From a virus, in IMG/VR virus record IMGVR_UViG_3300037096_000044, positions 1-62,748 of that record: a stretch of 62,748 nt of DNA, one strand, 5' to 3'. The notes under the pieces were generated by a model. It ran no database searches. It was given only the letters and a program-made list of their open reading frames with translations, and was not told where the DNA came from. This document shows positions 4,646 to 62,748 of the stretch, piece by piece. Made by a program: the position numbers and the translations under genes. How positions within the stretch are numbered: position 1 is the stretch's first letter; every line of letters starts with the position of its first letter.

Positions 4646-6088
4646 ATGGGCTACCTCCCGAAGATGAAAAGCCGACCGGCCCAAAAGGAGGCGCTGAAGC
4701 TCCTCCGGGGTAAGGAGGCGTTTGCACTTCTTATGGCGATGCGGACCGGGAAAACAAAAGTCGTGCTCGATGACTTCGGAGAGATGGAGCTAGCCGGAGA
4801 GGTTCAAGATCAACTCGTGATCGCTCCGGCGGGCGTTTATCGGACTTGGGAGACGGCCATTCGTGATCATATGTCGGAGGACATATTGGATCGCATGTTA
4901 GTTCATACTTGGAGTTCCGGTGCAGGAGTTGGAGAGCGCCGACGCCTCGAATATTTTATGTCAATAAAAGATAAGCGAAAGCCTCGCACGCTCTTAATGA
5001 ACGTGGAGGCTTTGTCCCGGCCCGGCGATGCGAGGAAATTGGTCAGCGAATATATCAAACAGCGCCGTGTCGTTACCAACGTGGACGAAAGCACAATTAT
5101 CAAAAACAATTCCGAACGGACCAAGTTTGTAACTACCGCTGTCCTTGCTGATTCTGATTATCGGCGCATCCTCTCCGGCCTCGCCACTCCGCGCTCGCCA
5201 CTGGACCTTTTCTATCAATTCCTTTTCCTTGATTGGCGCATACTTGGTCACAAGAGCTATTGGACCTTCCGCGCCGAGGTCGCGATTATGCGGACCGAGT
5301 TCTATGGCGGTCGCCGGGTTCCGATTGTTGTAGGATACCGCCCGGAAGCGGTGGAGGCGCTTAAGGAGAGAATTGCGCCTCACAGCTTTCGCGTTCCATT
5401 CCGTCCCAAGTATCCGAGCACCTATACCATCCGCGAAGTCGAGTTGACGAAGGAGCAAAAGAAGGCTTACGCGGAGATGAAGGAGTTTTCGACCACGAAC
5501 CTCGGGCGTGAGCGCCACGTTACCGCGACCGTGGTGATAGCTCAAATCATGAAGCTCCACCAAATCCTCCTCGGGCACGTAACCGACGAGAACCGGATTA
5601 TTCAAACGTTGCCAGAGAACCGAACGGCCGCACTACTCGGATTTTTAGAAGACTATGACGGCAAAGCCGTCATTTGGGCTCCTTACGATCATGACATTCG
5701 AAAGATCGCGGCGGCGCTTCGGAAAGAGTATGGTCCAAACTCAGTCGCATGTTTTTGGGGTGGAAATGCAAACACGCGGGAGGCTGAGGAAAAACGTTTC
5801 CTCAATGATCCAGTTTGCCGGTTCGAAGTCGCTACCCAAAGCGCCGGAGGCCGAGGCCGGACTTGGACGAATGCGCGGCTCGTGATCTATTACGCTTCGA
5901 CCGATAACCTAGAACACCGGGAGCAATCGGAGCAGCGCACGCTGGGTGAAGATAACAAATACCCAGCCGACTTCGTGGACTTCATCGTTCCGGGGACAGT
6001 GGAAACCAAAATCCTCGAAGCGCTCCGCAAGAAGATCGATATGAGTTCATTTATCAATGGCGACAATTACCGGGAGTGGATTATCTAA
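4646..6088 (+). CDS. SNF2/RAD54-family helicase.
   Basis: Contains MRTGKTKVVL (Walker A-like), NVDESTIIKN (DExx box), LSGLATPRSPLDLF and QSAGGRGRTW (motif VI). Confidence 0.85.
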   Translation: MGYLPKMKSRPAQKEALKLLRGKEAFALLMAMRTGKTKVVLDDFGEMELAGEVQDQLVIAPAGVYRTWETAIRDHMSEDILDRMLVHTWSSGAGVGERRRLEYFMSIKDKRKPRTLLMNVEALSRPGDARKLVSEYIKQRRVVTNVDESTIIKNNSERTKFVTTAVLADSDYRRILSGLATPRSPLDLFYQFLFLDWRILGHKSYWTFRAEVAIMRTEFYGGRRVPIVVGYRPEAVEALKERIAPHSFRVPFRPKYPSTYTIREVELTKEQKKAYAEMKEFSTTNLGRERHVTATVVIAQIMKLHQILLGHVTDENRIIQTLPENRTAALLGFLEDYDGKAVIWAPYDHDIRKIAAALRKEYGPNSVACFWGGNANTREAEEKRFLNDPVCRFEVATQSAGGRGRTWTNARLVIYYASTDNLEHREQSEQRTLGEDNKYPADFVDFIVPGTVETKILEALRKKIDMSSFINGDNYREWII

Positions 6089-6163: not shown

Positions 6164-6502
6164 TTAAGGGGATTCTAAAATATCCTCGCCATTCTCCGTC
6201 AAATTTTCCGTTAGATAACGGCGACGGACGAAATGATCAGGCTCCGGGAACTCTTCGCCATCTTTTGTTGCATTACGAACTCGCAGCCTCCAAATGTCGT
6301 TCTTAAGCTCGGCAAAGCGGTCATCATCCTCGTGATTGTGGAGCGAGATGATCCGATAGAATATTCGTCGTGTATCGTACACGAGTTGCTTTTGCTCGCT
6401 AAATTTACTTTGAAGGTAGATCATGATTGCCGAAGTCCCGGCAGCTACGGCTCCGATTAGATAGACAGTATCGTTGACGGCTAGGAGTTGCGCGAGCACC
6501 AT
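6164..6502 (-). CDS. Membrane-anchored hypothetical protein, the last gene of the late operon.
   Basis: N-terminal hydrophobic segment LLAVNDTVYLIGAVAAGTSAIMIYL. Confidence 0.5.
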   Translation of the reverse strand: MVLAQLLAVNDTVYLIGAVAAGTSAIMIYLQSKFSEQKQLVYDTRRIFYRIISLHNHEDDDRFAELKNDIWRLRVRNATKDGEEFPEPDHFVRRRYLTENLTENGEDILESP

Positions 6503-9518: not shown

Positions 9519-9928
9519 GGTGTCGCCTCCGAGGGTCTGGGAGTGGGAAGAGGTGGCCAAGGTTCGTCGCGAACCGTCCCGAGGCCATCGAGATGGAGCG
9601 CTTCATTTACAGCCGGAGTGCAATCGAGCTTCCTGCCTTTGATATATGGCCCACGGTCGTTGATGATAACTTCAGCGTGATTTCGCCCGAGGCTCAAGTA
9701 ACGACGTTCTCCAAGTCCGTGATCGATCGATGCGCACTTCATCGCTCTCGCATCGTATCTCTCGCCGGAGCTAGTACCAAAAAAGTTCTTCGGGACTGTG
9801 CCATCTCCCGGCCAATAGATCGAAGCAATTACACGCTCCGAGGCGTGAGCGACTAGATCATTCCATATCGCCACAACAATCGCCGCGAGTATAAGGAGAA
9901 CGGCGAGACGGAGAAGGTTCGCGATCAT
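9515..9928 (-). CDS. Membrane-anchored RlpA-like (DPBB) lytic transglycosylase.
   Basis: TM anchor IANLLRLAVLLILAAIVVAIW, then SGERYDARAMKCAS...VIINDRGPYIKGRKLDCTPA (RlpA/3D signature DRGP). Confidence 0.6.
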   Translation of the reverse strand: MIANLLRLAVLLILAAIVVAIWNDLVAHASERVIASIYWPGDGTVPKNFFGTSSGERYDARAMKCASIDHGLGERRYLSLGRNHAEVIINDRGPYIKGRKLDCTPAVNEALHLDGLGTVRDEPWPPLPTPRPSEATP

Positions 9929-10656
9929 ACGCTGCCCCAGTTGTTTACGAGCTTCGCGACCGTCATCGTCCCCACGAGCGTGGAGTTGTCGCAATAGCGC
10001 TCGATGCCAGGGAGAGTGTGCGGGCCTGGTCCCCATTGATCACCGTCATCTTGCCATTGCAACGGTCCGGACGCCTCCCAAGGAAACGGAACGAGCGCCG
10101 GGGCGAAAGTGCCGTATTGGCAAAACCAAAGTCGGCGCTTCGTAAAATTATTAAGGACTGTCCCGGAGGCTTTCGCGAGTTGGGCGCGTGGAGCATCACC
10201 CCCATACACCTTCATCGGAAAGCAGCACCAATTCTCAGTATAGTTACAAAAATCGTCTGCCCAAGAGGCTGGCTGCTGATACCCGGAAGCGCCGATGTCT
10301 TCCCAATCGAGCGTTAGGTCATCGCCCGGCTGATATCCGGCCGCCATAACCGCAGCCCTAAAATTAGCAGCTTCGATTATTGCCGCTCCTGTGCCATTGA
10401 AATGATAAAAGCCGAAGTGTGGAAATATGGAAAGAGAAGACCCGTCAACATCTGTGACGGGGATTGCTTTTCCATCCATCCAATACCGTCGCCGGTTCGC
10501 GGCTCGGCTATCTCGCTCATTGGTTCCTTCGCTGGCCTTGTGATCGAGGAAAGCGATGCCTTGTGCCTTCACTTGAGCAAAACCGGCTAGTGGCTGGTTT
10601 GGAAGGTCAATGACGTCATCACCTTCATAAAGGTCAATGCAAAACGGAGAGTTCAT
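9925..10656 (-). CDS. Glycoside hydrolase family 25-like muramidase (endolysin candidate).
   Basis: IDLYEGD...VKAQGIAFLDHKASEG...FGFYHF fits the GH25 pattern D-x-S/Y...KATEG...YHF. Confidence 0.55.
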   Translation of the reverse strand: MNSPFCIDLYEGDDVIDLPNQPLAGFAQVKAQGIAFLDHKASEGTNERDSRAANRRRYWMDGKAIPVTDVDGSSLSIFPHFGFYHFNGTGAAIIEAANFRAAVMAAGYQPGDDLTLDWEDIGASGYQQPASWADDFCNYTENWCCFPMKVYGGDAPRAQLAKASGTVLNNFTKRRLWFCQYGTFAPALVPFPWEASGPLQWQDDGDQWGPGPHTLPGIERYCDNSTLVGTMTVAKLVNNWGSV

Positions 10657-12393: not shown

Positions 12394-15300
12394 GGGTAAT
12401 CGCTCGATGAGTTGCCGGATACGGTCATATTGACAGGAGTGACATTATTGTTCTCGCCGGAAAGGTCGAAGCCTAATGCGGTAACGGATGAAGAGTTATT
12501 GTAAGCATAGAAACCATCTGCAACTCCTGTATAGGCTCCGAGGAACGTGATTGGGGCTAACGGCGATCCGCCCGCGAAGTCTGACGCGGGGAGAGCTTGA
12601 CCATCAATATAGTAAGTGTCTTCCATCTTTCCGTCGAAACCGAAACCAAAGGAATTGGTACCGCCGCCGGTCGAATAAAGATAAGCAATGACCACGATCC
12701 CACTTCCACCACCCCCGCTTCCATACAAACTTGCGCCACCACCGCCGCCGCCTGTATTTGGGGTTCCTGATACAGCAGGGCCGTTATTCCCCCCAGCGCC
12801 GCCGCCGCCAGAACCGCCAGCGCCGCCAGCGCCGCCAGCGCTAAGATCGCCCGCACCACCGCCGCCGCCGCCATAAATTACCGACGTGCCGGTAATTGAT
12901 GAAGATATCCCCGAGCCGCCAGCGCCGCCAATGTGACCGCTGCCCGTATTACCGCCGCCACCAGCGCCGCCGCCGCCACCAGCGTTAGTACTACCGGCTG
13001 CGCCTGCATTTCCTTGACCACCTGTGCCGCTTCCTCCCGAACCACCTGTGCCACCGCCACCGCCGCTTCCTCCCGTTGCACCATTGGTTGCTAGACCACC
13101 ACCACCGCCGCCACCAATAGCAGTTAACGGAGACGGAAATGCGATCTCGCTATTGCCACCGCTGTTTCCAAGAAGCGGTCCTGATGAACCTACCCCGAGC
13201 CCAGCGCCGCCGAGGCCCACCGTTATGGCGTAACTCCCGGCTGTTACTGATGTGCTGCCAGCGAGGACGCCGCCACCCCCACCGCCACCCGCTGCGTAAT
13301 GGCCACCACCACTACCACCGCCAGCGACGACCAAGTAGTTGATCACACTCACTGCACTCGCTGTGAATGTGCCCGATCCGGTGAATGTATGAATGCGGTA
13401 GCCACCCCCGGTCGTGATCGTACCGCCAGTTGACGCGCCCATACCCTGATTGACGCCCGCTCCGAGCGCCATATTAGTATTTTGCGGTGGCGAGGTCCCG
13501 GAAAGAGTTTCGGAGGAGCCATCGAGATAGAGCTTAACGCGGTTCGCAGCTGTCGCTTGAGTGGTATCAATAGCGACGCAAAGGTGGTGCCAAAGTTCAT
13601 CGCTGACAAGGCTCGAAGTCGTCAAGCTCATATACGTTCCGAGCGCGGTGGATGCGGCATTGACCGCGAACGAAGCGCCACCGACAAATTGGATGGCGAC
13701 TTGGTTCGCGGACGATCCTTGCTGCGCTAGGAATAAATTGGCAGTCTCGCTTGTCCCTCCGTATTTGAACCAAGTGGCAAAAGTGAATTTCTGCTGGTTC
13801 GCATTTGTATTCTGCGGGATGGTTGTGTATTGGTTTGCCGCCGCTCCGCTAGCTACACTTCGGAAGATCAACGATCCAGTTGAGATTGTGAAATAAACTG
13901 ACAGATCAATATCAATCAAAATATATGGCTGGGTGGTCGTGGTCGTTAAAAGACCGACGCCACCGCCGAAATCATCAACCGCCGTAATGGCACTATTGAC
14001 TTGTCCTAAATCAACGGATGCGACTTCGAGCGCTTGAGCTAACGGATGAGCGTATGCTAGAGCAGCAGGCGAGAAGGTATATGCAACACATTCCGCAAGC
14101 GTTTGAAGTCCTAAGCCATAGCCGTTATAAGCTTGAAACTTTAAATACAGCGTTTGATTAAGATACTGGGCCGGCAGATCATAGGTGAAAATTGAAGTGT
14201 CGAGCCGAGCAAAAGGGGCATTGACGGCATGGGATTGAATGACGGAGCCATATAGGCCACGGTTCAATCCGGTTAGAGCGTAGGTGTTTCCGGAAACGAG
14301 TGTGGCGGTTGTGTATGTTAGAAGCTCATCGTCTATAATACAAAGGTTCGCTGCTAACCCGGCTCCGGTCGGAGTAATTGAGGCAAGTGAGCCGTTGCTC
14401 TCTGAGAGATTGACGGTAAGTGTATCGACATTGTCCGGGTTCGTCCCAAGGTAAGTCGGAAGGCCTGTTGTTAACACGCCCATCCGGGCCGCGCCGGTTT
14501 GTTTCCCAATATTTTGGTAATTGGAGCCATCGAGCGAGAGCCAAACAAAACATCCGCCAAAATTTGGATCGAACGTCCCGCTAGGACCTCCCGAAATAGC
14601 AATCCAAACTTCCGGATTACTGCCGACCGGGGTGGAGCCTAGCATTGTGGCCGGAGGCTCGAACACAATCGGAGTATTGACCAGGTTCGGGACGATTTCA
14701 GCGTTGATAGCGAAACCAGAACCGGCTTGCGTCCCGTACTCGGGCGCGGAGACGGTGCCTAGGAACTCCTCTCCGGTAATTGTGATTGTGAAATCTTCGT
14801 TTTCTTGTATCTCAATAATCCGGACGCCTTGACGGTTTAAGCCTTGGGCGCTGTCGGTGATGGTGGCAATCGCCATAAGCTCTAGGATGAGCATAAAATG
14901 GCGGCCGACGGTCCACTGAAACGTCCGGATAATATTTTGCCGCAGCAGCTGGAGAACGGCGGATTGCTGCGCGGCGGAAGCGAGACAAAAGAAATGAGCT
15001 TGTTTTATATCGCTCGGACGCTCACGACCGAACGCGATGATGGATGCTTCGTCCTTTTGCTCGATGTCCACCGGATTGTAGTTATTGTTCCGGTCGAGGT
15101 ATTCGAGCTTAATATTGTTAAGGACTTGATCGCGCGATATCCGGATCGTCAAAAACGGGCTATCAGGGTTCGCGGTCCCGGTTCCAATTGTCCCTTGGTT
15201 CTTTAGGCAATCATCAATTGTGAAGTCATAAAGCGAATTGGTATTTGGGACATATGACGATGTAGCGGCCCAAGTATATTCGATAAGGACGGTTTGGCCA

Positions 15301-49203: not shown

Positions 49204-49370
49204 GGCGTCATCACCGGGCCGAACGCGGAAGAGGCGTTGTTACCATCGGACCGTTTTCAGGCTTAAGGAAACTCGGAAGGGCTATGCGTCGCGGTAAAGT
49301 CCCTCCAGAGCGACAGGTCATTATTGATACCGCGATGAAAAAAGCCAACGAAAGGAAATCCAATGGCTAA
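49200..49370 (+). CDS. Small basic protein (56 aa), tentative.
   Basis: MRRHHRAERGRG... ATGA overlap upstream, and its stop overlaps the next start. It is below the track cutoff. Confidence 0.3.
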   Translation: MRRHHRAERGRGVVTIGPFSGLRKLGRAMRRGKVPPERQVIIDTAMKKANERKSNG

Positions 49371-50202
49371 GGCGACAGCAAAACCTACCGGACGTGCAAT
49401 AGCGAAGACCGGAGGCGGCGGAGTTCCCGCCCACCTTCAAAAAGTCAAGATGAGTGGAGCGGGAGTATCGACCGATACCTCCGATCTATTGATCCCGATG
49501 TGCCGCATCCTCCAACCGATGTCCCCGGAGGTCCAAAAGCGCGGCGCGACGTATATTAAAGGAGCCGAGCCGGGCGACATCTATATCAAGAACGCCGCCA
49601 ACCCGGTTCTTAAGGGCGAGGATGGTTTTCTCTTTCAGCCTTGCTACTTCTCGAAGGGCATTGTTGAGTGGCTACCGCGCGATAAGGGCGGCGGCGGCGG
49701 CGGCGGGTTCGTAATGTTGCACAAGGAGGAACCGGCGGACGCAATATCCGTTCCGAACCCGCAGAACCCGGAGCGCACCATGCGTATCCGGAAGAGTAAC
49801 AAGAATATCCTCGTGGAGACGCGATACCACGGCGGTTTCATTATCACCGACGGAACCCCGATGCCGGCCGTTATTCCCTTCGCTTCATCCGGGCACACCG
49901 TATCAAAGGCTTGGATGATGCTTATGAACTCGAAGATGGTATCGGGGGTGAAGGCCGACAGCTGGGCGGTCTATTACCGCTTCAAGACGAAGCTGAAGAC
50001 GGTCGGCCCGAATACGTGGTCCATCTTCGAAATTACAGATGGTGGGGAGGAAGACGAAGACGGCCTTCCCTCTACACTGTGGGTCCCCACGCTTGAAGAC
50101 TATGAGCGCGGCGCGGCGCTCGGTAAGTCGCTAGCGAGCGGCGCTCAACGCTTCGACGCAGCGGCAGCGGGCGACGAAGCCGCTGACGATGAGAAGATGT
50201 AA
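49363..50202 (+). CDS. Hypothetical DNA-metabolism-module protein with a Gly7 tract and an acidic C-terminal tail (possible ssDNA-binding or annealing role).
   Basis: 279 aa ending in AAGDEAADDEKM. The function is a guess from context and the acidic tail. Confidence 0.4.
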   Translation: MAKATAKPTGRAIAKTGGGGVPAHLQKVKMSGAGVSTDTSDLLIPMCRILQPMSPEVQKRGATYIKGAEPGDIYIKNAANPVLKGEDGFLFQPCYFSKGIVEWLPRDKGGGGGGGFVMLHKEEPADAISVPNPQNPERTMRIRKSNKNILVETRYHGGFIITDGTPMPAVIPFASSGHTVSKAWMMLMNSKMVSGVKADSWAVYYRFKTKLKTVGPNTWSIFEITDGGEEDEDGLPSTLWVPTLEDYERGAALGKSLASGAQRFDAAAAGDEAADDEKM

Positions 50203-50210
50203 AGGTCAAA

Positions 50211-50238
50211 GGGGAAACCCAATTGGGTTTCCCCTTTC
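50211..50238 (+). terminator. Rho-independent terminator.
   Basis: Perfect palindrome GGGGAAACCC-aatt-GGGTTTCCCC followed by ttt. Confidence 0.8.
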
Positions 50239-50347
50239 AGCTTCCGGTAGAAGAGGCGTTTCATCGGTGGGCGCGCCTCCCTCCTTCTGGCAGGTCACTC
50301 GGACCGGCACCTGTGGAAGAAAGCCGGTCCACCTAATTTAATGGATA

Positions 50348-50712
50348 CATGCTTATCCGGTTGCCACACACAGGAGCTAGATCATGAGCGGCTTGACGGA
50401 AGAACAGCTTGACGCACTAGGCATAAAACGGCCTGAAATCCCGGCCGACACGGTGGAGCACCAAGTGACGCCATCACAGCGGGCCTACGGGCTTCTGTGG
50501 CGCACATTTACGGACCTGCCGTTTGTTCACATGGCGCGCCGCGAATTGTTTGAGGCGCTGTCAAAAGAGGAACGGTATGCCGGGATCGCGTGGGCTATCG
50601 AGAAGTACGGCACCATGCCAACGCAGCAAATGATCGCTGCCGATATACAGGTCGGCCAGTTCCCCGAAAAATCCTACGGATAGTAGCTGTGTGTCTAAAC
50701 CGGATAAGCATG
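50348..50712 (+). mobile_element. Inverted-repeat-bracketed cassette 1 (365 bp), flanked by an 8-bp direct duplication AATGGATA.
   Basis: The L end is 50348-50373 (CATGCTTATCCGGTTGCCACACACAG). The R end is 50687-50712 (CTGTGTGTCTAAACCGGATAAGCATG). AATGGATA occurs at 50340-50347 and at 50713-50720. Confidence 0.7.
50384..50683 (+). CDS. Cassette 1 cargo: hypothetical 99-aa protein.
   Basis: RBS caggag lies at the inner edge of the L repeat. The stop is 4 nt before the R repeat. Confidence 0.6.
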   Translation: MSGLTEEQLDALGIKRPEIPADTVEHQVTPSQRAYGLLWRTFTDLPFVHMARRELFEALSKEERYAGIAWAIEKYGTMPTQQMIAADIQVGQFPEKSYG

Positions 50713-50713
50713 A

Positions 50714-50959
50714 ATGGATATGACAATGGCAGATGATCAAGCGCTTAGGATCGATATAAAACCGGGTGATGATGGCGGTGTCCCGACTGACCGCGAAAAG
50801 GCATCCCAGTACCGAACGAAGGCGACCATCCAGCTAACATCGCTTTGTAAGCTTCTCGATGAAGCGAAGGCGGACGGTTTCATCATCTCTTACGGAACCG
50901 GCGACAATGCTCAAGGCGAACAGGCCATCACCAAACTCGACATCTCGTTTGCGCCATGA
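50714..50959 (+). CDS. Hypothetical protein.
   Basis: Its ATG lies inside the right copy of the AATGGATA duplication. Confidence 0.5.
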   Translation: MDMTMADDQALRIDIKPGDDGGVPTDREKASQYRTKATIQLTSLCKLLDEAKADGFIISYGTGDNAQGEQAITKLDISFAP

Positions 50960-51135
50960 TAGTCCGTGAAGCCGGGTTAATCATCTTCAACTGCGACAAG
51001 TGTTCCGACTTCGTGGAGACGGAGGAGCGCGGCTTCGAGGAAGCGAAATTAAAGCTCGATGCTGAGAAGTGGCACGCCGTCCGCGTCGGACTAAACTGGG
51101 AACAGATTTGTCCGTCTTGTTGGAGCAAGTTATGA
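50956..51135 (+). CDS. Small CxxC...CxxC zinc-ribbon protein (59 aa).
   Basis: Sequence is MIVREAGLIIFNCDKCSDFVE...ICPSCWSKL, with ATGA overlaps at both ends. Confidence 0.45.
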   Translation: MIVREAGLIIFNCDKCSDFVETEERGFEEAKLKLDAEKWHAVRVGLNWEQICPSCWSKL

Positions 51136-51824
51136 CCGCCGAAGTAGCGTTATCGGTTCGTGAACAAATCCTAGCGTTGTGGCCCGATCACACCGGGCCG
51201 GAGATTGAGGCTATGTTAGCGAAGGAGTTGGGTTCGGCTAAACCGCGCTACATCTTTGGCGTAGTGCGGCGGGCACGAAGACGCGGCGACGCTAGAGCCA
51301 TCGAGAAACCGAAGGGGAAGATGAGCGAGTGGACGAAGGAGAGTAAGGACCGGCTGCGCGAACTCGCCGCGCCGGGCCACGATACGCTTAGCGATTATGA
51401 TATTGCGAATATCCTTAATAAAGAGTTTGGTACATCCTTCTCCCGTAATGCCATAATCGGAATGCGTGGAAGGATGCTACTTTTTAAGGCGCGGAAAGAA
51501 AGAAAACATCATGCGCGTGGCGAGTATCGCCCGCGCGCCATCCTTCAGCCGAAGGATAAGCCGGGCCAGAATTTGAATTTTCATTCTTGGCGCTCGCCTA
51601 AGCCGTCTAAGCCTCCAGTTCTTGTAGAGCCGAAAGAAGCTCAACAAGGTTTCCCGTATCGGGCGAGCCTTCTTGAGCTTAACAATTCGACTTGCCGGTG
51701 GCCGGTGTGGCCTCACTTCGTCGATCCTCCGGACCGCGAATATTTCTTTTGTGGCGAGCCGAGCGCGGACCTCGGAGCATCGAAACCATATTGTCCCTAT
51801 CACACGTCCCAATCGAGAGGCTAA
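51132..51824 (+). CDS. gcrA: GcrA-like cell-cycle/transcription regulator with a duplicated N-terminal HTH-like module.
   Basis: The N-terminal module is MSEWTKESKDRLRELAAPGH...SRNAIIGMRGRM, and an upstream copy reads REQILALWPDHTGPEIEAMLAKELG...IFGVVRRARRRG. The C-terminal signature is CRWPVW...FFCGEP...KPYCPYH. Confidence 0.7.
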   Translation: MTAEVALSVREQILALWPDHTGPEIEAMLAKELGSAKPRYIFGVVRRARRRGDARAIEKPKGKMSEWTKESKDRLRELAAPGHDTLSDYDIANILNKEFGTSFSRNAIIGMRGRMLLFKARKERKHHARGEYRPRAILQPKDKPGQNLNFHSWRSPKPSKPPVLVEPKEAQQGFPYRASLLELNNSTCRWPVWPHFVDPPDREYFFCGEPSADLGASKPYCPYHTSQSRG

Positions 51825-51938
51825 TACCATGGTCCTTAGATCGCGCATCGGCGTGATGGAGCCGGTAGGTATGTTGGTTGCTCTCCTACCTAAAGGCGCG
51901 ATTTGAGGGGCAACTCCTTGGCTGGGAGCCATAAATAT

Positions 51939-52664
51939 CATGCTTATCCGGTTGCCACACACAAACGCTGAGACCTACTAGATGTTGATGCGAACAAAAC
52001 CCAAAGCTCTTGACCTTTTCTGCTGTGCCGGCGGCGCGGGAATGGGCTTGTGGCAAGCCGGATTTGAGGTTGTCGGTGTTGATATTGAGCCGCAGCGCCG
52101 CTATCCGTTTGAGTTTCATCAAGCCGACGCTATGACGTTTCCGCTGGACGGCTTCGATTTCGTTTGGGCAAGTCCGCCTTGCCAAGGCTACAGCCATCTG
52201 ACGCCTAAAGATGCAAAAAAGAGATGGGTCAAGCTAATTCCGGCCATAAGGGCGCGCTTAGTCAAAGCCGGAGTGCCGTATTGCATCGAGAACGTGGTGG
52301 GTGCCCGCCAACAACTCGTAAGGCCGTGCCTGCTTTGCGGCTCCATGTTTGGCCTTCGGACACAACGACACCGGCTTTTTGAAACATCGTTTTCGACCGC
52401 TCCTCCAAGAACGTGCGACCACAGCCAAATTCCGCTGCTCGTCACTACAGCCAGCAAAGCGAGCCGAGAGAAGCGTTTTAAGTTGGGAATGCCCCCAAAG
52501 ACGGTAAAAAACGCCCCCCTAGCCTACGGAATTGATTGGATGGATTTCAACGGACTGAAAGAGGCGATACCACCCGCTTACGCCAAGTTCATCGGAACAG
52601 CCGCAATGGCATATATCAAACAGACACAAGCTGTAGGGCTGTGTGTCTAAACCGGATAAGCATG
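51939..52664 (+). mobile_element. Inverted-repeat-bracketed cassette 2 (726 bp).
   Basis: The L end is 51939-51963 and the R end is 52640-52664. Its inner L and R extensions are shared with cassette 3. GAAGGATT follows the R end at 52665-52672. Confidence 0.65.
51982..52650 (+). CDS. Cassette 2 cargo: compact DNA (cytosine-5) methyltransferase (222 aa).
   Basis: Contains DLFCCAGGAGMG (I), ASPPCQGYS (IV), IENV (VI), TQRHRLF (VIII) and a short target-recognition region. The last codons and the TAA stop lie inside the R repeat. Confidence 0.75.
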   Translation: MLMRTKPKALDLFCCAGGAGMGLWQAGFEVVGVDIEPQRRYPFEFHQADAMTFPLDGFDFVWASPPCQGYSHLTPKDAKKRWVKLIPAIRARLVKAGVPYCIENVVGARQQLVRPCLLCGSMFGLRTQRHRLFETSFSTAPPRTCDHSQIPLLVTTASKASREKRFKLGMPPKTVKNAPLAYGIDWMDFNGLKEAIPPAYAKFIGTAAMAYIKQTQAVGLCV

Positions 52665-52877
52665 GAAGGATTACCCCGGACCATGCGAAACATCATCGGA
52701 GGCGATATGCTCTTTTGGAGGCCGGAAGGCCCGCAACTAGAATACCGCGATCGCACGTTTTTCATTGCCGACCTCAATCCTGAGATTGAGATTAGGTGGG
52801 CCGTGACGCCGCGCCAGCTTCTCGGCATCGGCTTCAAGTGCATCGCCGCCGCAACCCGTTCCCTCTTGTCACTTTAG
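52662..52877 (+). CDS. Hypothetical protein (alternative start 52683).
   Basis: The first ATG is the terminal ATG of the cassette 2 R repeat. Confidence 0.45.
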   Translation: MEGLPRTMRNIIGGDMLFWRPEGPQLEYRDRTFFIADLNPEIEIRWAVTPRQLLGIGFKCIAAATRSLLSL

Positions 52878-52884
52878 GCCCAAA

Positions 52885-53106
52885 ATGAACCCGGATCAGA
52901 CCATCAACCTAAATCAGAACGCCGCCGACTGCATCAAGGCAGCCAGCAAATTCGGTGAGACGATCTACACCAATATCTGCAACGGGAATGTTTCTCACGT
53001 TGCATGGGGCGGCGTCGATTGGCTTGCCATGATAGGCATATCGAGCTTTGGCCTAGCCTTCACGGCGCTGCTTTTCAGCTTCGCGATTATGGTCATTCGA
53101 GATTGA
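52885..53106 (+). CDS. Small membrane protein.
   Basis: C-terminal hydrophobic segments WLAMIGISSFGLAFTALLFSFAIMVI. Confidence 0.5.
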   Translation: MNPDQTINLNQNAADCIKAASKFGETIYTNICNGNVSHVAWGGVDWLAMIGISSFGLAFTALLFSFAIMVIRD

Positions 53107-53112
53107 AGGATT

Positions 53113-53471
53113 CATGCTTATCCGGTTGCCGCACACAAACGCTGAGACCTACTAGATGCTGAGGGCACTATGAAGATCATCGTTAACGGCGAGCCGCACG
53201 AATACGCGCACAAAAAGATAGGCTACGACGAGGTCGTTAAGCTGGCGACCGGCAAAAACTCGCAAGAACTGACGGTTACCTATTTTTGGCGCAGCCATCT
53301 GCATGATTTGACCCGCAACGGTTCGCTTTCGCCGGGTGTTTGGAAGCCCAGGAGCCTTGGCAATCTTCGCAAGACAATCGAGGTTGCCGAAGGCATGGAG
53401 TTCACCGCAGTTTGGACAGGTGCAGCGTGACCACAAGATGTAGGGCTGTGTGTCTAAACCGGATAAGCATG
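53113..53471 (+). mobile_element. Inverted-repeat-bracketed cassette 3 (359 bp).
   Basis: The L end is 53113-53137 (one A-to-G change) and the R end is 53447-53471. GAAGGATT precedes the L end at 53105-53112. Confidence 0.65.
53170..53430 (+). CDS. Cassette 3 cargo: beta-grasp (ThiS/MoaD/multiubiquitin-like) small protein.
   Basis: Contains MKIIVNGEPHEYAHKKIGYDEVVKLA...TVTY...GMEFTAV. There is no C-terminal Gly-Gly. It is preceded by a 5-codon uORF (MLRAL) whose stop overlaps this ATG. Confidence 0.45.
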   Translation: MKIIVNGEPHEYAHKKIGYDEVVKLATGKNSQELTVTYFWRSHLHDLTRNGSLSPGVWKPRSLGNLRKTIEVAEGMEFTAVWTGAA

Positions 53472-53544
53472 AATGGGATGGTTGGTGGCCCGCTGATGTT
53501 GCGGCGTAAACCGTCGAACTCCTGATGAATAAGGAAACTGGAAC

Positions 53545-53703
53545 GTGATCGACAACTGGCATGGCAAGCCTATCGGCGATCTCACGCGCGGCGAACTTAT
53601 TGACGCGCTAGAGTGGTGTGTCGGAAAACTGCGCGAATACCAACTCACCGAATTACGCCGAGCAACAAACCCATTGCGCGGACTTCCTCTGGAACGGAAA
53701 TGA
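53545..53703 (+). CDS. Small hypothetical protein (52 aa, GTG start).
   Basis: RBS aaggaa lies upstream. It is below the track cutoff. Confidence 0.3.
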   Translation: MIDNWHGKPIGDLTRGELIDALEWCVGKLREYQLTELRRATNPLRGLPLERK

Positions 53704-53722
53704 AACTGAAGGAGTTTTTGTC

Positions 53723-54649
53723 ATGACCATTGACATCATCGGAGCCGGGTTGGCCGGACTTCTCGCCGGCAATATGCTAAGCCACCGTCACCCAATCATC
53801 TCGGAGGCGCAGCCAACGTTGCCGAATAATCACAGTGCAGTATTACGCTTTAAGACATCCTCTGTAGGAGATGTCTTGAATATTCCCTTCCGTAAAGTGA
53901 CGATGGTAAAGACCGCGCTGCCTTGGCTCAATCCGGTCGCGGATGCTCTCGCGTATTCTCGTAAAAATACAGGAATAAGCCGAAGCGACCGCTCGATTAT
54001 CGCCGGCACCGTTACCGAGCCGCGTTGGATCGCACCGCCGAACCTTATATGGCTGATGGCGGAACGACTGACTATTTCTTATAGTCAGTCGTTTCTTTTT
54101 AAGGATAAGGAACGAGGCGAGAATTGGCGTCCGACCATTTCCACCATACCGATGCCGACGCTGATGAAGCTCCTCAACTATCCGAAGGCCGATCAGTTTA
54201 AGTTTAGCGGAACAGCAGGAATGAATATTAAGGCACGCCTCTTTAATTGTGATGCCTATATTTCGCTCCTCGTTCCGGACGAAAATTACATCTTTTCCCG
54301 CATCTCGGTGACAGGAGACGAAATGATTGTTGAGTGTCCAGTTGCGGAGGATATTTACGGCGATATATTAAACATCGCTATTGATGCTGCTGAGCTTCTT
54401 GGGCTAGAGGTCGATGGTAAAACGCTCTCTCATCATCAGCAAAAATATGCGAAAATCAATCCGCTCGAAGACGATGAAGCCCGCAAGGATTTCATTTATT
54501 GGGCGACCGATCAACACGGCATCTTTTCGCTCGGCCGCTTCGCGACGTGGCGGCCGCATCTCCTCTTGGATGACCTCGTTCAAGACATCCGGTTGATCGA
54601 CAAGTGGATTGAGAAGAAAGACCGATATGCCATAGCGAGGAGCCGATGA
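53723..54649 (+). CDS. FAD/NAD(P)-binding Rossmann protein (UDP-galactopyranose mutase / amine-oxidase-like fold).
   Basis: MTIDIIGAGLAGLLAG matches GxGxxG, and the C-terminus has SLGRFATWRPHLLLDDLVQDI. RBS gaaggag lies upstream of the ATG at 53723. Confidence 0.5.
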   Translation: MTIDIIGAGLAGLLAGNMLSHRHPIISEAQPTLPNNHSAVLRFKTSSVGDVLNIPFRKVTMVKTALPWLNPVADALAYSRKNTGISRSDRSIIAGTVTEPRWIAPPNLIWLMAERLTISYSQSFLFKDKERGENWRPTISTIPMPTLMKLLNYPKADQFKFSGTAGMNIKARLFNCDAYISLLVPDENYIFSRISVTGDEMIVECPVAEDIYGDILNIAIDAAELLGLEVDGKTLSHHQQKYAKINPLEDDEARKDFIYWATDQHGIFSLGRFATWRPHLLLDDLVQDIRLIDKWIEKKDRYAIARSR

Positions 54650-54849
54650 ACCCCGGAACCGTCTTCCTAGTCGCCTGTGTCTCGTGCGGGCTTCTTATCT
54701 ACATCGCTGGCTTTATCAATGGCACTTATCTCTATGGTCAATGGAACAGCGAACGGCTGCGCGCTATGGCCGTCGCCGGTTATACCGTTATCGAAGTCCG
54801 CACCTACCGGCTTCTTGACATCACGCCGAAGGTGGAGGAGAAGCTATGA
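54646..54849 (+). CDS. Small membrane protein.
   Basis: Hydrophobic segment VFLVACVSCGLLIYIAGFINGTYLY. Confidence 0.45.
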   Translation: MNPGTVFLVACVSCGLLIYIAGFINGTYLYGQWNSERLRAMAVAGYTVIEVRTYRLLDITPKVEEKL

Positions 54850-55037
54850 CCGTCTTTTATTATCGGCGCGGGCTAAAGGGTGAAGCTTGGCCGGTTAAGT
54901 CGCTCGAAAAACCGAACTCGCTGCCTTCGGAAATCTTCACGAAGGATAAAGAGAGCGTTCGCATTCAAGTTATCACTCGATGCGCTCGCCACGAAGTATC
55001 CGTTGGAGAAGACCCATGGCTGAGTTCGATCCGATAA
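54846..55037 (+). CDS. Hypothetical protein.
   Basis: 63-aa ORF with an ATGA overlap. Confidence 0.4.
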   Translation: MTVFYYRRGLKGEAWPVKSLEKPNSLPSEIFTKDKESVRIQVITRCARHEVSVGEDPWLSSIR

Positions 55038-55255
55038 GGTCCATCCAACAAGAGTTGGAAGGACTAGCGGCCGTGCGCCTCTCGATGAAACGCCGGGAGG
55101 CAGTCGCGGAGGAAGCGATGGGTAAAGCCGAGCAAGAGCTTAATGACCTCCGCAAGCTCAGTGGTTTTCTCAGTCTTGAAATCGAGCGTAAGCGTAAAGT
55201 CCTACAGGACCTCGTTGATAAACAGGAGAGCAAAGATGAAAGTTACACTGATTGA
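55016..55255 (+). CDS. Hypothetical coiled-coil protein.
   Basis: Internal ATG (MAEFDPIRSIQQELEGL...) of track ORF 54980..55255. Confidence 0.4.
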   Translation: MAEFDPIRSIQQELEGLAAVRLSMKRREAVAEEAMGKAEQELNDLRKLSGFLSLEIERKRKVLQDLVDKQESKDESYTD

Positions 55256-55994
55256 TTATACCGGAATTGGTTGGCCCGATCCGGCAGACCGCGCAGCTAA
55301 CATTCTTATCTTTTCTAAGAATACAAGATTGAATATGACGCCCGATCTAATCGGGGATATTGAGCAGTGGAACAATGAAAGAAAGCTCGAAGAGCTTACT
55401 TACATGGCCAATACCATCCCGAGCAGTTGGGAATTTGTCGATTATACCTTCCTCATCGAAGGTGTCACTCGCGCCTTTACTCACCAACTCGTTCGGACGC
55501 GGACGGCGAGCTTCGCGCAACAAACCATGCGCGTACTCGATGTGAGCGAAGGTCCGGGATGGGATTACCTAACCGGACCATCCATTGAACATCGCGCGCT
55601 GCTAGAGATGGATTACGAAGCGGCAATGGCCGTTATCGCTAAGACCTATAAGGAATTGATAAAGAACGGTGCAACAATTGAAGACGCCCGTGGCATCCTC
55701 CCCACGAACATTCTCACCAATATCGTTATGAAACTGAACATGCGCAACTTCGTCGATATGGTGAGGAAGCGCTCAAGCTCCCGGACCCAAGGCGAATACC
55801 GGGACGTTCTCGCCGCGATGAAGGAAGCAGCTTTGGCCGTCCATCCATGGCTAAAGCTCTTTATCGAGCGGGATGCGGACCGGGCGATTTCGGACCTTGA
55901 GAAAATCATAAATGGAAGCAGCATCGTTAACTCTGATCCAAATGTTAAAATAACGATGATCAAGCTCCTCGATCAATTGCGAGCGCTGGTGTAA
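55236..55994 (+). CDS. thyX: Flavin-dependent thymidylate synthase (ThyX-like) with a variant signature.
   Basis: FTHQLVRTRTASFAQQTMR is compared with the canonical RHRxxSxxxxSxR. RBS ggagag lies upstream of MKVTLIDY. Confidence 0.6.
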   Translation: MKVTLIDYTGIGWPDPADRAANILIFSKNTRLNMTPDLIGDIEQWNNERKLEELTYMANTIPSSWEFVDYTFLIEGVTRAFTHQLVRTRTASFAQQTMRVLDVSEGPGWDYLTGPSIEHRALLEMDYEAAMAVIAKTYKELIKNGATIEDARGILPTNILTNIVMKLNMRNFVDMVRKRSSSRTQGEYRDVLAAMKEAALAVHPWLKLFIERDADRAISDLEKIINGSSIVNSDPNVKITMIKLLDQLRALV

Positions 55995-62251: not shown

Positions 62252-62748
62252 GAGCGCCCAAAAAGTTTGTTACCGACATCCCCGAGTTCTTGCAACGGAA
62301 GCCGGATGGCGCTTTGGCTTTCCCAAAAGCGAAGGCCCCGAAAGTTGAACTGGTGAAAGCTATCGCACCAGTTCAACTCCCCGCGCTGCCGGAAGGATTG
62401 CGCTGGGCCGCGACCGAGAGCGAAGAGACGGGAAGCTCCGCCGAACTCGGCATCGTTCCGAGGCGGTGGGCGAGCGACCCGAGCATCGCCCGGTTCCTCG
62501 CTCTAGCGATCCGCGATAAGGGAGAGAGGAAGAAGGCTTCGCTCGAAAGCTTCAAAGCGTCGATGGCCGCGAAGAAGGCGGCGGAGCCAAAAGTAGCGAA
62601 GCCGTCTTTCGGAACCGGCGTTAAATTCCGTATCCTCCGGATGCGCAACCCGGATACAAAAGCCGGGAAACGCCACACCGAGATGGCCGAATATCTAAAG
62701 GCCCATCCGAATTGCGACGTGGCGGAGATGTTGGCGGGAGTTAAGAGT
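62248..62748 (+). CDS. 5' part of the wrap-around gene, which continues at base 128 of the window.
   Basis: The GTG start overlaps the upstream stop (GTGA). The frame stays open to the window end and is in phase with ORF 20..352. Confidence 0.6.
   Translation, partial: MRAPKKFVTDIPEFLQRKPDGALAFPKAKAPKVELVKAIAPVQLPALPEGLRWAATESEETGSSAELGIVPRRWASDPSIARFLALAIRDKGERKKASLESFKASMAAKKAAEPKVAKPSFGTGVKFRILRMRNPDTKAGKRHTEMAEYLKAHPNCDVAEMLAGVKS
62622..62748. repeat. Terminal direct repeat, copy 2 (identical to 1-127).
   Basis: Read directly. Confidence 0.95.

Follow-up and report, generated by a model that had tools for sequence, protein, structure and literature searches.

Two neighbouring cassettes in the window (the whole stretch of viral DNA that was analysed, 62,748 nucleotides) probably acted together and reordered the genes between them, and the footprint of this event was found in one phage. 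The ends of the cassettes in this region followed the order L R L R L R, all on the + strand, and the left and right subterminal sequences were distinguishable. The right end of cassette 2 faced the left end of cassette 3, with both elements in the same orientation, and the 8-bp sequence GAAGGATT directly adjoined each of the two facing ends, on the side of the DNA between the cassettes. The features of the region are given below, where t1 and t2 denote the two copies of GAAGGATT, A and B denote the two genes between the cassettes, and L131 denotes a 1.9-kb metagenome contig.

50348–50712, + strand: cassette 1, non-autonomous IS1595-type, with a 99-aa cargo gene at 50384–50683
51931–51938, + strand: orphan left flank of cassette 2, ATAAATAT, present in one copy only in the window
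51939–52664, + strand: cassette 2, with left end (51939–51981), C5 DNA methyltransferase (51982–52650) and right end (about 52633–52664)
52665–52672, + strand: t1, immediately after the right end of cassette 2 (...AACCGGATAAGCATG, ending at 52664)
52683–52877, + strand: gene A, 64 aa; homologues all of at most 64 aa, protein identical in L131
52874–52880, + strand: A/B joint, TTAGGCC, a microhomology of the L131-type arrangement
52885–53106, + strand: gene B, 73 aa, with a hydrophobic C-terminal stretch in its translation; protein identical in L131
53105–53112, + strand: t2, immediately before the left end of cassette 3 (CATGCTTATCCGG..., starting at 53113)
53113–53471, + strand: cassette 3, with left end (53113–53169), 86-aa cargo (53170–53430) and right end (about 53440–53471)
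53472–53479, + strand: orphan right flank of cassette 3, AATGGGAT, without a partner at any cassette end

Judged by their sequence features, the cassettes derive from an insertion sequence of the IS1595 family and are non-autonomous, with cargo genes. A perfect 13-bp inverted repeat, CATGCTTATCCGG, with an imperfect extension to about 25–30 bp was common to all copies, and a 15-mer of the end was detected in more than 119 viral loci. Perfect 8-bp duplications were observed for 60 of the 86 end pairs of viral contigs (57 different targets), and several more pairs matched at 7 of 8 positions. Longer copies with the same ends (L056, L072, L108, L022 and L106) encoded a protein of about 347 aa that matched PF12762, DDE_Tnp_IS1595 (E = 3e-33), and the L056 protein also matched PF12760, Zn_ribbon_IS1595 (E = 9e-10). 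In alphaproteobacterial genomes, the same ends surrounded transposase-only copies of about 1.1 kb with 8-bp duplications; an end pair was present in 53 of the 80 bacterial loci scanned, and a pair with a perfect duplication was present in 41 of these 53. The sizes of the cassettes ranged from 184 to 1968 bp across the family, with one phage gene in each copy of the window, and a short leader ORF in the left end abutted the start codon of the cargo. No transposase gene was encoded within the window. The features of the IS1595 family, including the N-terminal zinc ribbon in all groups but IS1016, are described in PMC8101967, and according to the account of Siguier, Gagnevin & Chandler (2009) relayed there, IS1595 is an ISfinder family in which some members carry passenger genes.

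The mobility of the family was evaluated from elements at different sites. Cassette 1 was flanked by a perfect 8-bp target duplication, AATGGATA, at 50340–50347 and 50713–50720. It had 98% identity over 367 nt to an element in the viral contig L004, which occupied another site with the duplication CTATATTT, and the homology ended precisely at the element ends. The presence of such an element at two sites, with the homology confined to the element, indicates mobility. The cargo of cassette 2 matched Pfam DNA_methylase and PHROG 363, and related methyltransferase cassettes were found at other sites (L090, L073, L119 and L022); its left end contained a 13-codon mini-ORF, the ATG of which was inside the inverted repeat. 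The cargo of cassette 3 had a match to Pfam Multiubiquitin. The same cassette at different sites and the diversity of the targets point indirectly to mobilisation in trans by a transposase acting on these ends. The original prediction that the ends are, or once were, recombinationally active was supported by the demonstrable mobility of the family and by its 8-bp duplications. Moreover, cassettes 2 and 3 were 96% identical in their left ends and 93% identical in their right ends, with the ends in common over about 45–50 bp. Ends so nearly identical would be interchangeable substrates.

The match of the two inner flanks had been read as an 8-bp duplication left by inverse transposition, with the 432-bp segment between them being captured DNA. 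The arrangement itself was confirmed in the sequence: GAAGGATT was flush against the facing ends of cassettes 2 and 3 at 52665–52672 and 53105–53112, the outer flanks ATAAATAT and AATGGGAT differed, and neither of them had a partner beside a cassette end. The ATAAATAT copy at 51931–51938 is read as the remaining half of the original target duplication of cassette 2. A composite transposon made of cassette 2, the segment and cassette 3 was rejected since the outer flanks ATAAATAT and AATGGGAT do not form a duplication, and a nested insertion with the two facing ends as its termini was rejected since both outer faces point towards the 432-bp segment. A simple recombination of two cassettes, each having its own duplication, was rejected as well, since it does not give identical inner flanks. 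An integron gene cassette array was discarded in view of the transposon-type inverted repeats, the 8-bp duplications at many unrelated sites and the DDE transposase.

On both strands of the window, GAAGGATT occurred five times, against 2.8 times expected; its presence alone is therefore unremarkable, and it is the position flush against two ends that counts. The probability that two independent targets are identical was P = 1.5e-4 with the composition of the 57 real target duplications of the family, although few viable insertion points exist in small intergenic gaps, so that repeated use of one 8-mer is less improbable than this value suggests. Among the 21 neighbouring pairs of a right end and a left end in all loci, an 8/8 match was found only for the pair of cassettes 2 and 3, and there was no second case of an inward duplication; the routine swapping of genes by cassette pairs is thus putative. 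The target sites had a weak but real palindromic consensus, R-T-N/RWWNNWWY/N-A-Y, which GAAGGATT in its context fitted at 9 of 10 informative positions. SD-like words were present at 33% of the insertion sites and at 21% of random positions, and this modest excess was insufficient for a ribosome-binding-site preference to be accepted as the cause of target choice.

The segment was sought elsewhere with a single GAAGGATT, as had been proposed, and was found in L131, which supplied the decisive evidence. In this contig, proteins A and B were identical to those of the window, and the gene order was B-GAAGGATT-A, as against GAAGGATT-A-B-GAAGGATT in the window. The empty site of L131 reads ...CGAGATT GAAGGATT ACCCCGGACC ATG.... 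When positions 52874–53112 of the window were joined to positions 52673–52881, only 6 mismatches in 448 were observed relative to positions 806–1253 of L131. On this alignment, the window segment is a circular permutation of an L131-type 440-bp unit. On the 3' side of t1, ACCCCGGACC was followed by the start of gene A, the same as after the single GAAGGATT in L131, and on the 5' side of t2 was the native 3' end of B, also the same as in L131. The sequences to the left of t2 and to the right of t1 thus match the two sides of one GAAGGATT in L131, which makes t1 and t2 copies of a single site; judged by these contexts, they are a real target duplication of one ancestral site.

The joint between A and B fell in a 6/7 microhomology, TTAGGCC after A and TTAGCCC before B, two motifs separated by 440 bp in L131. 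Behind gene A, the sequences of L131 and L129 are alike, indicating that the A/B joint of the window is the derived state. In the cassette-free L121, GAAAGATT, a 7/8 relative of GAAGGATT, was found right after B, and GAAAGATTACTCCCG was retained on the 3' side of B. The retention of GAAAGATTACTCCCG after B in L121, together with the likeness of L131 and L129 after A, indicates that the L131 order is ancestral. Genes A and B of L131 adjoin a cassette of the same family as in the window; the L131 cassettes have a different end subfamily and a different methyltransferase, and L131 is hence not the direct ancestor of the window. Further cassette-free contexts of gene A were provided by L126–L130, and L121–L125 contained relatives of gene B, the TGA stop codon of which overlaps the first two bases of t2 in the window. 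Gene A had been placed at 52662–52877; its start is most likely 52683, in agreement with the length of 64 aa in all homologues and in L131, and the ATG at 52662 is part of the end of cassette 2.

These comparisons altered the original prediction. The topology of an inward duplication with orphan outer flanks agrees with inverse transposition, but the 432 bp are not foreign captured DNA: they are the lineage's own B-A pair in a new order, as seen from the B-GAAGGATT-A arrangement of L131 and from the microhomology joint. An 8-mer that predates the cassettes as a conserved part of both neighbouring genes had been named as evidence against a duplication. The 8-mer is indeed older than the cassettes, but it is present as a single copy separating B from A in L131 and as the 7/8 form GAAAGATT in L121. 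A single pre-existing GAAGGATT between B and A is harmless to the target-duplication reading, being the expected look of a target site.

The window was assembled from a metagenome, and its termini overlap by 127 bp. When GenBank phages were searched for near and distant DNA matches to positions 49300–55300, the searches gave no relatives and only remote methyltransferase matches, to actinophages, and a search of IMG/VR with the GcrA-like protein gave one remote match. The IMG/VR DNA patterns (end of B plus t, t plus start of A, and outer flanks, with t being one copy of GAAGGATT) gave chance matches or nothing, and in the metagenome scan with protein B, all relatives retrieved were distant and had no cassettes. 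Exact-protein look-ups returned no record for the cargo of cassettes 2 and 3 or for the gene after cassette 3; the look-up with GcrA returned L218 only, a contig of 1.3 kb that is identical in sequence to the window and breaks off at the cassette ends. No intermediates or reciprocal products of the window phage were found with the IMG/VR DNA patterns, the metagenome scan and the exact-protein look-ups. In the literature search, no mention was found of these ends or of IS1595 cargo cassettes in phages.

The possibility that no event took place was also considered: the two 8-mers could match by chance, be copies of an intergenic motif that were there beforehand, or come from misassembly at the repeated cassette ends. 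GAAGGATT looks like a ribosome-binding region, similar motifs are found repeatedly in front of small genes (e.g., the 18-bp repeat on the two sides of B in L121), and an assembly with such a terminal overlap is the source of the window. This reading is very improbable and already largely refuted: the contexts of t2 and t1 are the two sides of one site in L131, the chance is about 1.5e-4 per comparison, and the neighbouring cassette junctions were reproduced exactly in an independent data set, in which L218 repeats the left-flank junction of cassette 2 and is 100% identical to positions 50688–51966. The three novel junctions of the window (AAGCATGGAAGGATTACCCCGG, CACTTTAGGCCCAAAATGAAC and GATTGAAGGATTCATGCTTATCC) share just 7–8 bp with the alternatives, which is too short for a k-mer graph misjoin, and an assembly artefact was rejected.

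The most economical origin, and one that is moderately favoured, is reversed-ends (inside-out) transposition into the inter-cassette segment or its circle, followed by end joining. Cassettes 1–3 are mini-transposons that each consist of two IS1595-type inverted ends around one small gene; an IS1595-family DDE transposase would be supplied in trans, and the ancestor would have carried B-GAAGGATT-A between two cassettes of the same orientation. The predicted precursor junctions are CCGGATAAGCATGATAAATAT (right end plus ATAAATAT) and AATGGGATCATGCTTATCCGG (AATGGGAT plus left end), and the predicted empty site is GATTGAAGGATTACCCCGGACC. The transposase would bring together the two facing ends, the right one of cassette 2 and the left one of cassette 3, and not the two ends of one cassette. 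Cuts at the facing ends would free the intervening DNA, and the remainder of the circular phage genome would act as the 'transposon'. Both ends would integrate at the GAAGGATT that separates B from A, either in the released segment or in its circular copy, with the 8-bp stagger usual for the family; B-GAAGGATT would thereby be attached to the left end of cassette 3, and GAAGGATT-A to the right end of cassette 2. The free ends of the segment would be sealed at the 7-bp microhomology that directly follows A and directly precedes B. This would yield cassette 2, GAAGGATT-A-B-GAAGGATT and cassette 3, with the outer flanks orphaned, and the orphan outer flanks of the window are thus predicted by the model.

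In this reversed-ends model, both junctions may have been made by a single concerted event, and the target may have been the released segment in linear form or a circle of 440 bp that came from the same genome or from a co-infecting one. The model would require such a circle, or end joining of the released linear fragment in the infected cell, and its joining pathway and cut-and-paste chemistry are likewise putative; its details would differ if transposition were replicative. Against the model stand the absence of a second case among the 21 neighbouring pairs and the absence of intermediates and reciprocal products from the searches described above. Precise joining would leave AATGGGAT directly followed by ATAAATAT at the A/B joint; this sequence is absent from the window, and resection or microhomology joining must therefore be assumed. 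The breakpoint on the B side was within 8 bp of the end of the L131 cassette and might mark a transposase cut. This reading is suggestive only since the upstream cassette of L131 is flanked by ATAGGATT, whereas the flank of cassette 2 is ATAAATAT, which the model also needs on the right side of this cassette prior to the event.

One standard insertion would also create junctions of both kinds (B-t-left end and right end-t-A). A route of this kind, with ordinary insertion at GAAGGATT followed by tandem duplication and end-to-end recombination, is possible but rather unlikely. One cassette (E) would first be inserted between B and A to give B-t-E-t-A; unequal exchange at the TTAGSCC microhomology would give ...E-t-A-B-t-E..., and recombination within the shared ends of about 45 bp would remove the outer copies, replace the cargo and leave foreign outer flanks. 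The cassette ends, at 93–96% identity over about 45–50 bp, could recombine, and about a quarter of the end pairs of the family lack a perfect duplication, indicating that secondary events at cassettes are common. A RecT annotation was present in the relative L121 only, and the 279-aa ORF at 49363–50202 of the window is, at a guess, a putative recombinase. However, at least four events (insertion, illegitimate duplication and two end-to-end recombinations) would be needed, as against one event plus repair. The intermediate, with two direct repeats of more than 1 kb, would be unstable, and it was not seen with the IMG/VR DNA patterns or in the metagenome scan with protein B.

Two independent insertions at a favoured 8-mer, after tandem duplication of B-t-A and with the outer copies later trimmed by deletions, are improbable. 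In this case, GAAGGATT would be favoured by its fit to the target preference (the 9 of 10 positions given above) and as one of the few harmless positions in the 18-bp intergenic gap. In L131, another cassette is located at the equivalent 8 bp (ATAGGATT followed by AGCCCC), in a similar motif upstream of B, and neighbouring cassettes in L062 and L024 occupy 7/8-similar targets (ATCCATAT and ATCCAAAT), each with its own duplication. Five events would be needed, however, and each insertion would bear GAAGGATT on both sides, yet the outer flanks are ATAAATAT and AATGGGAT. Furthermore, a tandem B-t-A array was absent from the relatives examined (L121–L131).

The usual explanation of phage mosaicism is recombination, either homologous or illegitimate. 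Here, dozens of small cargo cassettes between phage genes have come from a bacterial IS family, and insertion sequences are considered rare in phage genomes (PMC11602168). If the reversed-ends origin is true, the locus would be a natural prokaryotic or viral counterpart of the 'alternative transposition' of maize Ac/Ds and a rare natural footprint of it in a virus. The ends would be active, now or recently, in phage DNA, and the facing ends with an IS1595 transposase would form a concrete testable substrate for a family whose chemistry is not known to have been worked out. As a tentative and rather unlikely extension, alphaproteobacterial phages may host a large undescribed population of 'expression-ready' IS1595-ended mini-transposons, in which neighbours regularly pair their facing ends. 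The leader ORF from the inverted repeat might then be coupled to the start of the cargo, and host or phage IS copies might mobilise the cassettes. Transposase-driven reversed-ends events would in that case reorder, delete and exchange small genes between cassettes, acting as an engine of mosaicism, which would not come solely from homologous or illegitimate recombination.

In the inside-out (inverse) transposition of Tn10 and Tn5, the inner ends are paired, the backbone moves, and the central segment is lost or replaced, with the target duplication beside the inner ends. The window is similar in the pairing of the inner ends of two flanking elements and in the duplication beside them; however, the IS copies of Tn10 and Tn5 are inverted and autonomous, whereas cassettes 2 and 3 are direct and non-autonomous, with different cargo, and the target is the inter-element DNA. 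After adjacent deletions by IS1, which is regarded as a relative of IS1595, and with translocatable units of IS26, the element retains one old flank, has a new flank on the other side and lacks its own duplication. Cassettes 2 and 3 share these properties, but for two different cassettes to bracket a permuted segment, such processes would have to involve another copy of the element or proceed in several steps. The likeness to IS1595 insertion sequences lies in DDE_Tnp_IS1595 and the zinc ribbon of the autonomous copies, the terminal inverted repeats and the 8-bp duplications, and the minimal IS1595 element of about 1.1 kb with a single gene resembles the bacterial copies with cassette ends. 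Unlike IS1595, the copies of the window are without transposase, carry one phage gene each, are located in a phage genome and have a leader ORF in the left end.

MITEs are common to prokaryotes and their viruses, and their ends match host elements (Nadal-Molero et al., 2024; PMC11602168). That survey covered small non-coding elements, found in only 0.01% of viral sequences, with IS1595 and cargo unmentioned (PMC11602168). The cassettes are likewise non-autonomous inverted-repeat elements in viral genomes, but each of those in the window carries an expressed-looking gene. When Ac/Ds of maize undergoes reversed-ends transposition, two elements close to each other contribute their facing ends, which together behave like a single transposon (Zhang, Peterson and co-workers; PMC3744419). 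The inter-transposon segment is released and circularised, identical 8-bp sequences are found beside the two reversed ends, and the outcomes include deletions, inversions, duplications and 'permutations' (PMC3744419). Ac/Ds is a eukaryotic hAT element with excision sites repaired by host end joining, whereas the elements here are derivatives of a bacterial IS1595 in a phage, the joint falls in a 7-bp microhomology, and the event is deduced from one fixed product, not from observed twin products. The two systems are alike in the facing ends, the identical 8-bp sequences at the reversed ends and the permutation as outcome.

The phage genome was complete and was assembled as a circle with a terminal overlap of 127 bp (1-127 = 62622-62748), which is typical for circular k-mer assembly. 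Three small gene-carrying units in one common orientation were located between 50.3 and 53.5 kb of the window, and each of these cassettes had as its ends a perfect 13-bp inverted repeat, CATGCTTATCCGG, which extended further in imperfect form.

50348-50712, plus strand: cassette 1, with its own perfect 8-bp duplication AATGGATA
51939-52664, plus strand: cassette 2, right end flush with t1
52665-52672: t1, copy of the 8-mer GAAGGATT adjoining the right end of cassette 2
53105-53112: t2, copy of GAAGGATT adjoining the left end of cassette 3
53113-53471, plus strand: cassette 3, left end flush with t2

The outer flanks of the cassette 2/cassette 3 pair, ATAAATAT and AATGGGAT, differed. Between these two cassettes, the right ends and the left ends were 93-96% identical. 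An independent sequencing run yielded a contig (L218, Logan SRR13689538) that matched window 50688-51966 at 100% identity; it covered the stretch between cassettes 1 and 2, reached into the right end of the former and the left end of the latter, and stopped at both repeats. Hence, the same phage, with the same junction between ATAAATAT and cassette 2, was present in a second data set. The original prediction was accurate in the positions and flanks of the 8-mer, and was corrected in the start of gene A (64 aa), the first of two small genes between cassettes 2 and 3. The ATG at 52662 was the final three bases of the cassette 2 end, and the start was assigned to 52683 because all homologues were at most 64 aa and the protein of a metagenome contig (L131) was identical. 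Elsewhere in the window, 16 tandem copies of an 18-bp unit were observed at 2555-2968, the minus strand of the GC-rich region at 12700-13330, with 9-bp periodic repeats, may code for a protein of glycine-rich or collagen-like type, and ORF 55143-55994 looked like a ThyX-type thymidylate synthase.

The cassette family was explored by scanning IMG/VR with the 15-mer end, pairs being called with two mismatches allowed in the 13-mer. The 15-mer was found in more than 119 loci, in many of which a left end and then a right end lay a few hundred bases apart. Perfect 8-bp direct repeats flanked 60 of the 86 left-right pairs, at 57 different sequences, and in several further pairs the duplication was 7/8 or off by one base. 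The target preference was palindromic but weak (R-T-N|RWWNNWWY|N-A-Y, approximately 4 bits of information). Short copies of 184-1200 bp carried one small gene apiece, including C5 and N6 methyltransferases, many unknowns and one gene that was taken, from its translation, for PAPS-reductase-like. Long copies of 1.7-2.0 kb (L022, L056, L072, L106, L108 and others) encoded a protein of about 347 aa with the Pfam domains DDE_Tnp_IS1595 (3e-33) and Zn_ribbon_IS1595 (9e-10). The IS1595 family is "usually flanked by 8-bp TSDs" (PMC8101967), and these transposase domains are its defining features. Copies of minimal size (about 1.1 kb) that held the transposase only, with the same ends and 8-bp duplications, were present in many alphaproteobacterial genomes and MAGs; they were multi-copy (L138-L217) in Paracoccaceae, Rhodoplanes, Methylocapsa, Xanthobacter and others. 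Some viral autonomous copies carried passengers, as at L022:3727-5491, where a transposase and a methyltransferase lay within one end pair. Transposase in trans probably comes from these autonomous relatives, which also give a clue to the host; their occurrence in alphaproteobacteria fits the GcrA-like gene of the phage. Since no IS1595-type transposase was found in the window by tblastn, cassettes 1-3 were non-autonomous cargo derivatives, necessarily moved in trans. An element in L004 was 98% identical to cassette 1 over the exact cassette length, in the opposite orientation and with a different duplication, CTATATTT. This copy at another site supports cassette mobility, and together with the mobile IS1595-type family it agrees with the predicted activity of the ends.

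Secondary arrangements were also observed. In another phage group (L062:10734-13112, L024, L020, L001), neighbouring cassettes occupied the 7/8-similar targets ATCCATAT and ATCCAAAT; one had a perfect duplication, the other was flanked by ATCCAAAT/ATCCAAAC (7/8 match), and the L062 cassette at 9570-10309 had no duplication. This group is further evidence of preferred motifs and secondary events. At L030:4470-5985 and L089:6784-7872, one more left end lay inside an outer element that itself had a perfect duplication; in L030, the truncated right end ACCGGATA stood before it. Both loci are possibly nested or abutted cassettes.

The cassette ends were partly coding. The left end contained a mini-ORF of 12-13 codons that started at an ATG within the inverted repeat (MLIRLPHTNAETY*).

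50348-50387, 51939-51984 and 53113-53172: left-end mini-ORF, also in many loci, e.g., L021, L029, L033, L073, L090 and L119

Its stop abutted the cargo start or overlapped it, as in TAGATG of cassette 2 and ATGA of cassette 1, and in many copies the cargo ATG was at element position 44. The arrangement looks like built-in translational coupling, by which cargo would be expressible at any landing site. The methyltransferase frame of cassette 2 entered the right-end repeat and stopped there (...GLCV, TAA 52648-52650; window 52626-52650), so that this transposon end was partly coding; related cassettes had the same kind of ending (DVGLCV, DVELCV).

The decisive comparison was provided by L131 (JGI, 1948 bp), which encoded the exact proteins of gene A and gene B (73 aa). 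The first feature of L131 was a right end belonging to a cassette that carried a different C5 methyltransferase; after it came ATAGGATT, AGCCCCAAA and gene B, then ...CGAGATT GAAGGATT ACCCCGGACC, gene A, its TAG and GCCGGCG.... Two genes on the minus strand and one more cassette-type end lay downstream. As had been proposed for the segment elsewhere, a single GAAGGATT was present, between B and A. The window sequence left of t2 was the B side of this site, and that right of t1 was the A side. When joined, window 52874-53112 and 52673-52881 matched L131 806-1253 with 6 mismatches in 448, so the window holds a 440-bp unit in circularly permuted form, cut open at GAAGGATT, with the 8-mer at both new ends. 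The new A-B joint (52874-52880, TTAGGCC) fell within a 6/7 microhomology, TTAGCCC before B at 806 and TTAGGCC after A at 1246 of L131, spaced by exactly 440 bp. In the cassette-free phage contig L121, GAAAGATTACTCCCG directly followed the B stop; it matched the 8-mer at 7/8 positions and continued similarly. The sequence after A in L131 resembled that of L129, another A-bearing contig. Both indicate that B-t-A was ancestral and the window order derived, and the polarity is clear. L131 was not the direct ancestor, as its cassettes differed in end subfamily, cargo and flank. The predicted capture of foreign DNA was not upheld: the segment was a reordered gene pair that already belonged to the lineage. 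The 8-mer predated the cassettes as a single copy, as a target site should, and not as two. In L121 (62 kb), an 18-bp direct repeat, ATTGAAAGATTA[A/C]TCCCG, bracketed gene B (5983-6000, immediately 5' of its ATG, and 6218-6235, overlapping its stop); it was the homologue of window ATT-GAAGGATT-ACCCCGG. This recurring inter-gene motif may serve in translation initiation or, as a short recombination site, in the shuffling of small genes.

Any explanation must yield five products: right end-t-A, B-t-left end, the illegitimate A-B joint, outer flanks orphaned at both cassettes, and a different cargo in each of the two. Nested insertion was rejected because both ends turned their outer sides toward the segment, a composite transposon because the outer flanks differed, and recombination between two cassettes with their own duplications because it would not yield identical inner flanks. 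From the composition of real targets, the probability of two independent sites being identical was 1.5e-4. Among 21 adjacent right-end/left-end pairs across all loci, the 8/8 match occurred in the cassette 2/cassette 3 pair, and no second example was found. Two hits at a favoured 8-mer within a duplicated unit are a very improbable origin. An ordinary insertion at t, followed by a microhomology tandem duplication and two end-to-end recombinations, is a better though still unlikely route. Such multi-step routes would suit the roughly one-quarter of family end pairs without a perfect duplication, the intergenic gap of just 18 bp and the other cassette of L131 at the equivalent position of a similar motif upstream of B, but they require four or five events through unstable intermediates.

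The inside-out signature itself held, with GAAGGATT on the inner flanks, unmatched outer flanks, the empty site in L131 and the permutation relative to it. We consider it rather probable that one reversed-ends event at the facing ends accounts for all five products. These two ends, right of cassette 2 and left of cassette 3, would be synapsed and cleaved together, freeing the inter-cassette DNA, and the remaining circular genome would act as the "transposon". It would integrate at GAAGGATT, either within the freed segment or within a circular 440-bp copy that came from this genome or a co-infecting one. By the standard geometry, each end would be joined to the arm on its own side, left to left and right to right, giving cassette 2-t-A... 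and ...B-t-cassette 3, and closure of the loose ends at the microhomology would produce the window arrangement. No precursor or reciprocal product was found with DNA patterns in IMG/VR, a metagenome scan with protein B or exact-protein look-ups. The element family and the rearrangement type are both known kinds; relative to the literature searched, two things appear new, namely how abundant non-autonomous IS1595 cassettes with a single gene are in phage genomes, and a natural reversed-ends permutation between two such cassettes. The logic of the proposed event is like that of inside-out transposition by Tn10 and Tn5. Moreover, it corresponds to the "reversed-ends transposition" described in passages of an account of maize Ac/Ds (PMC3744419).
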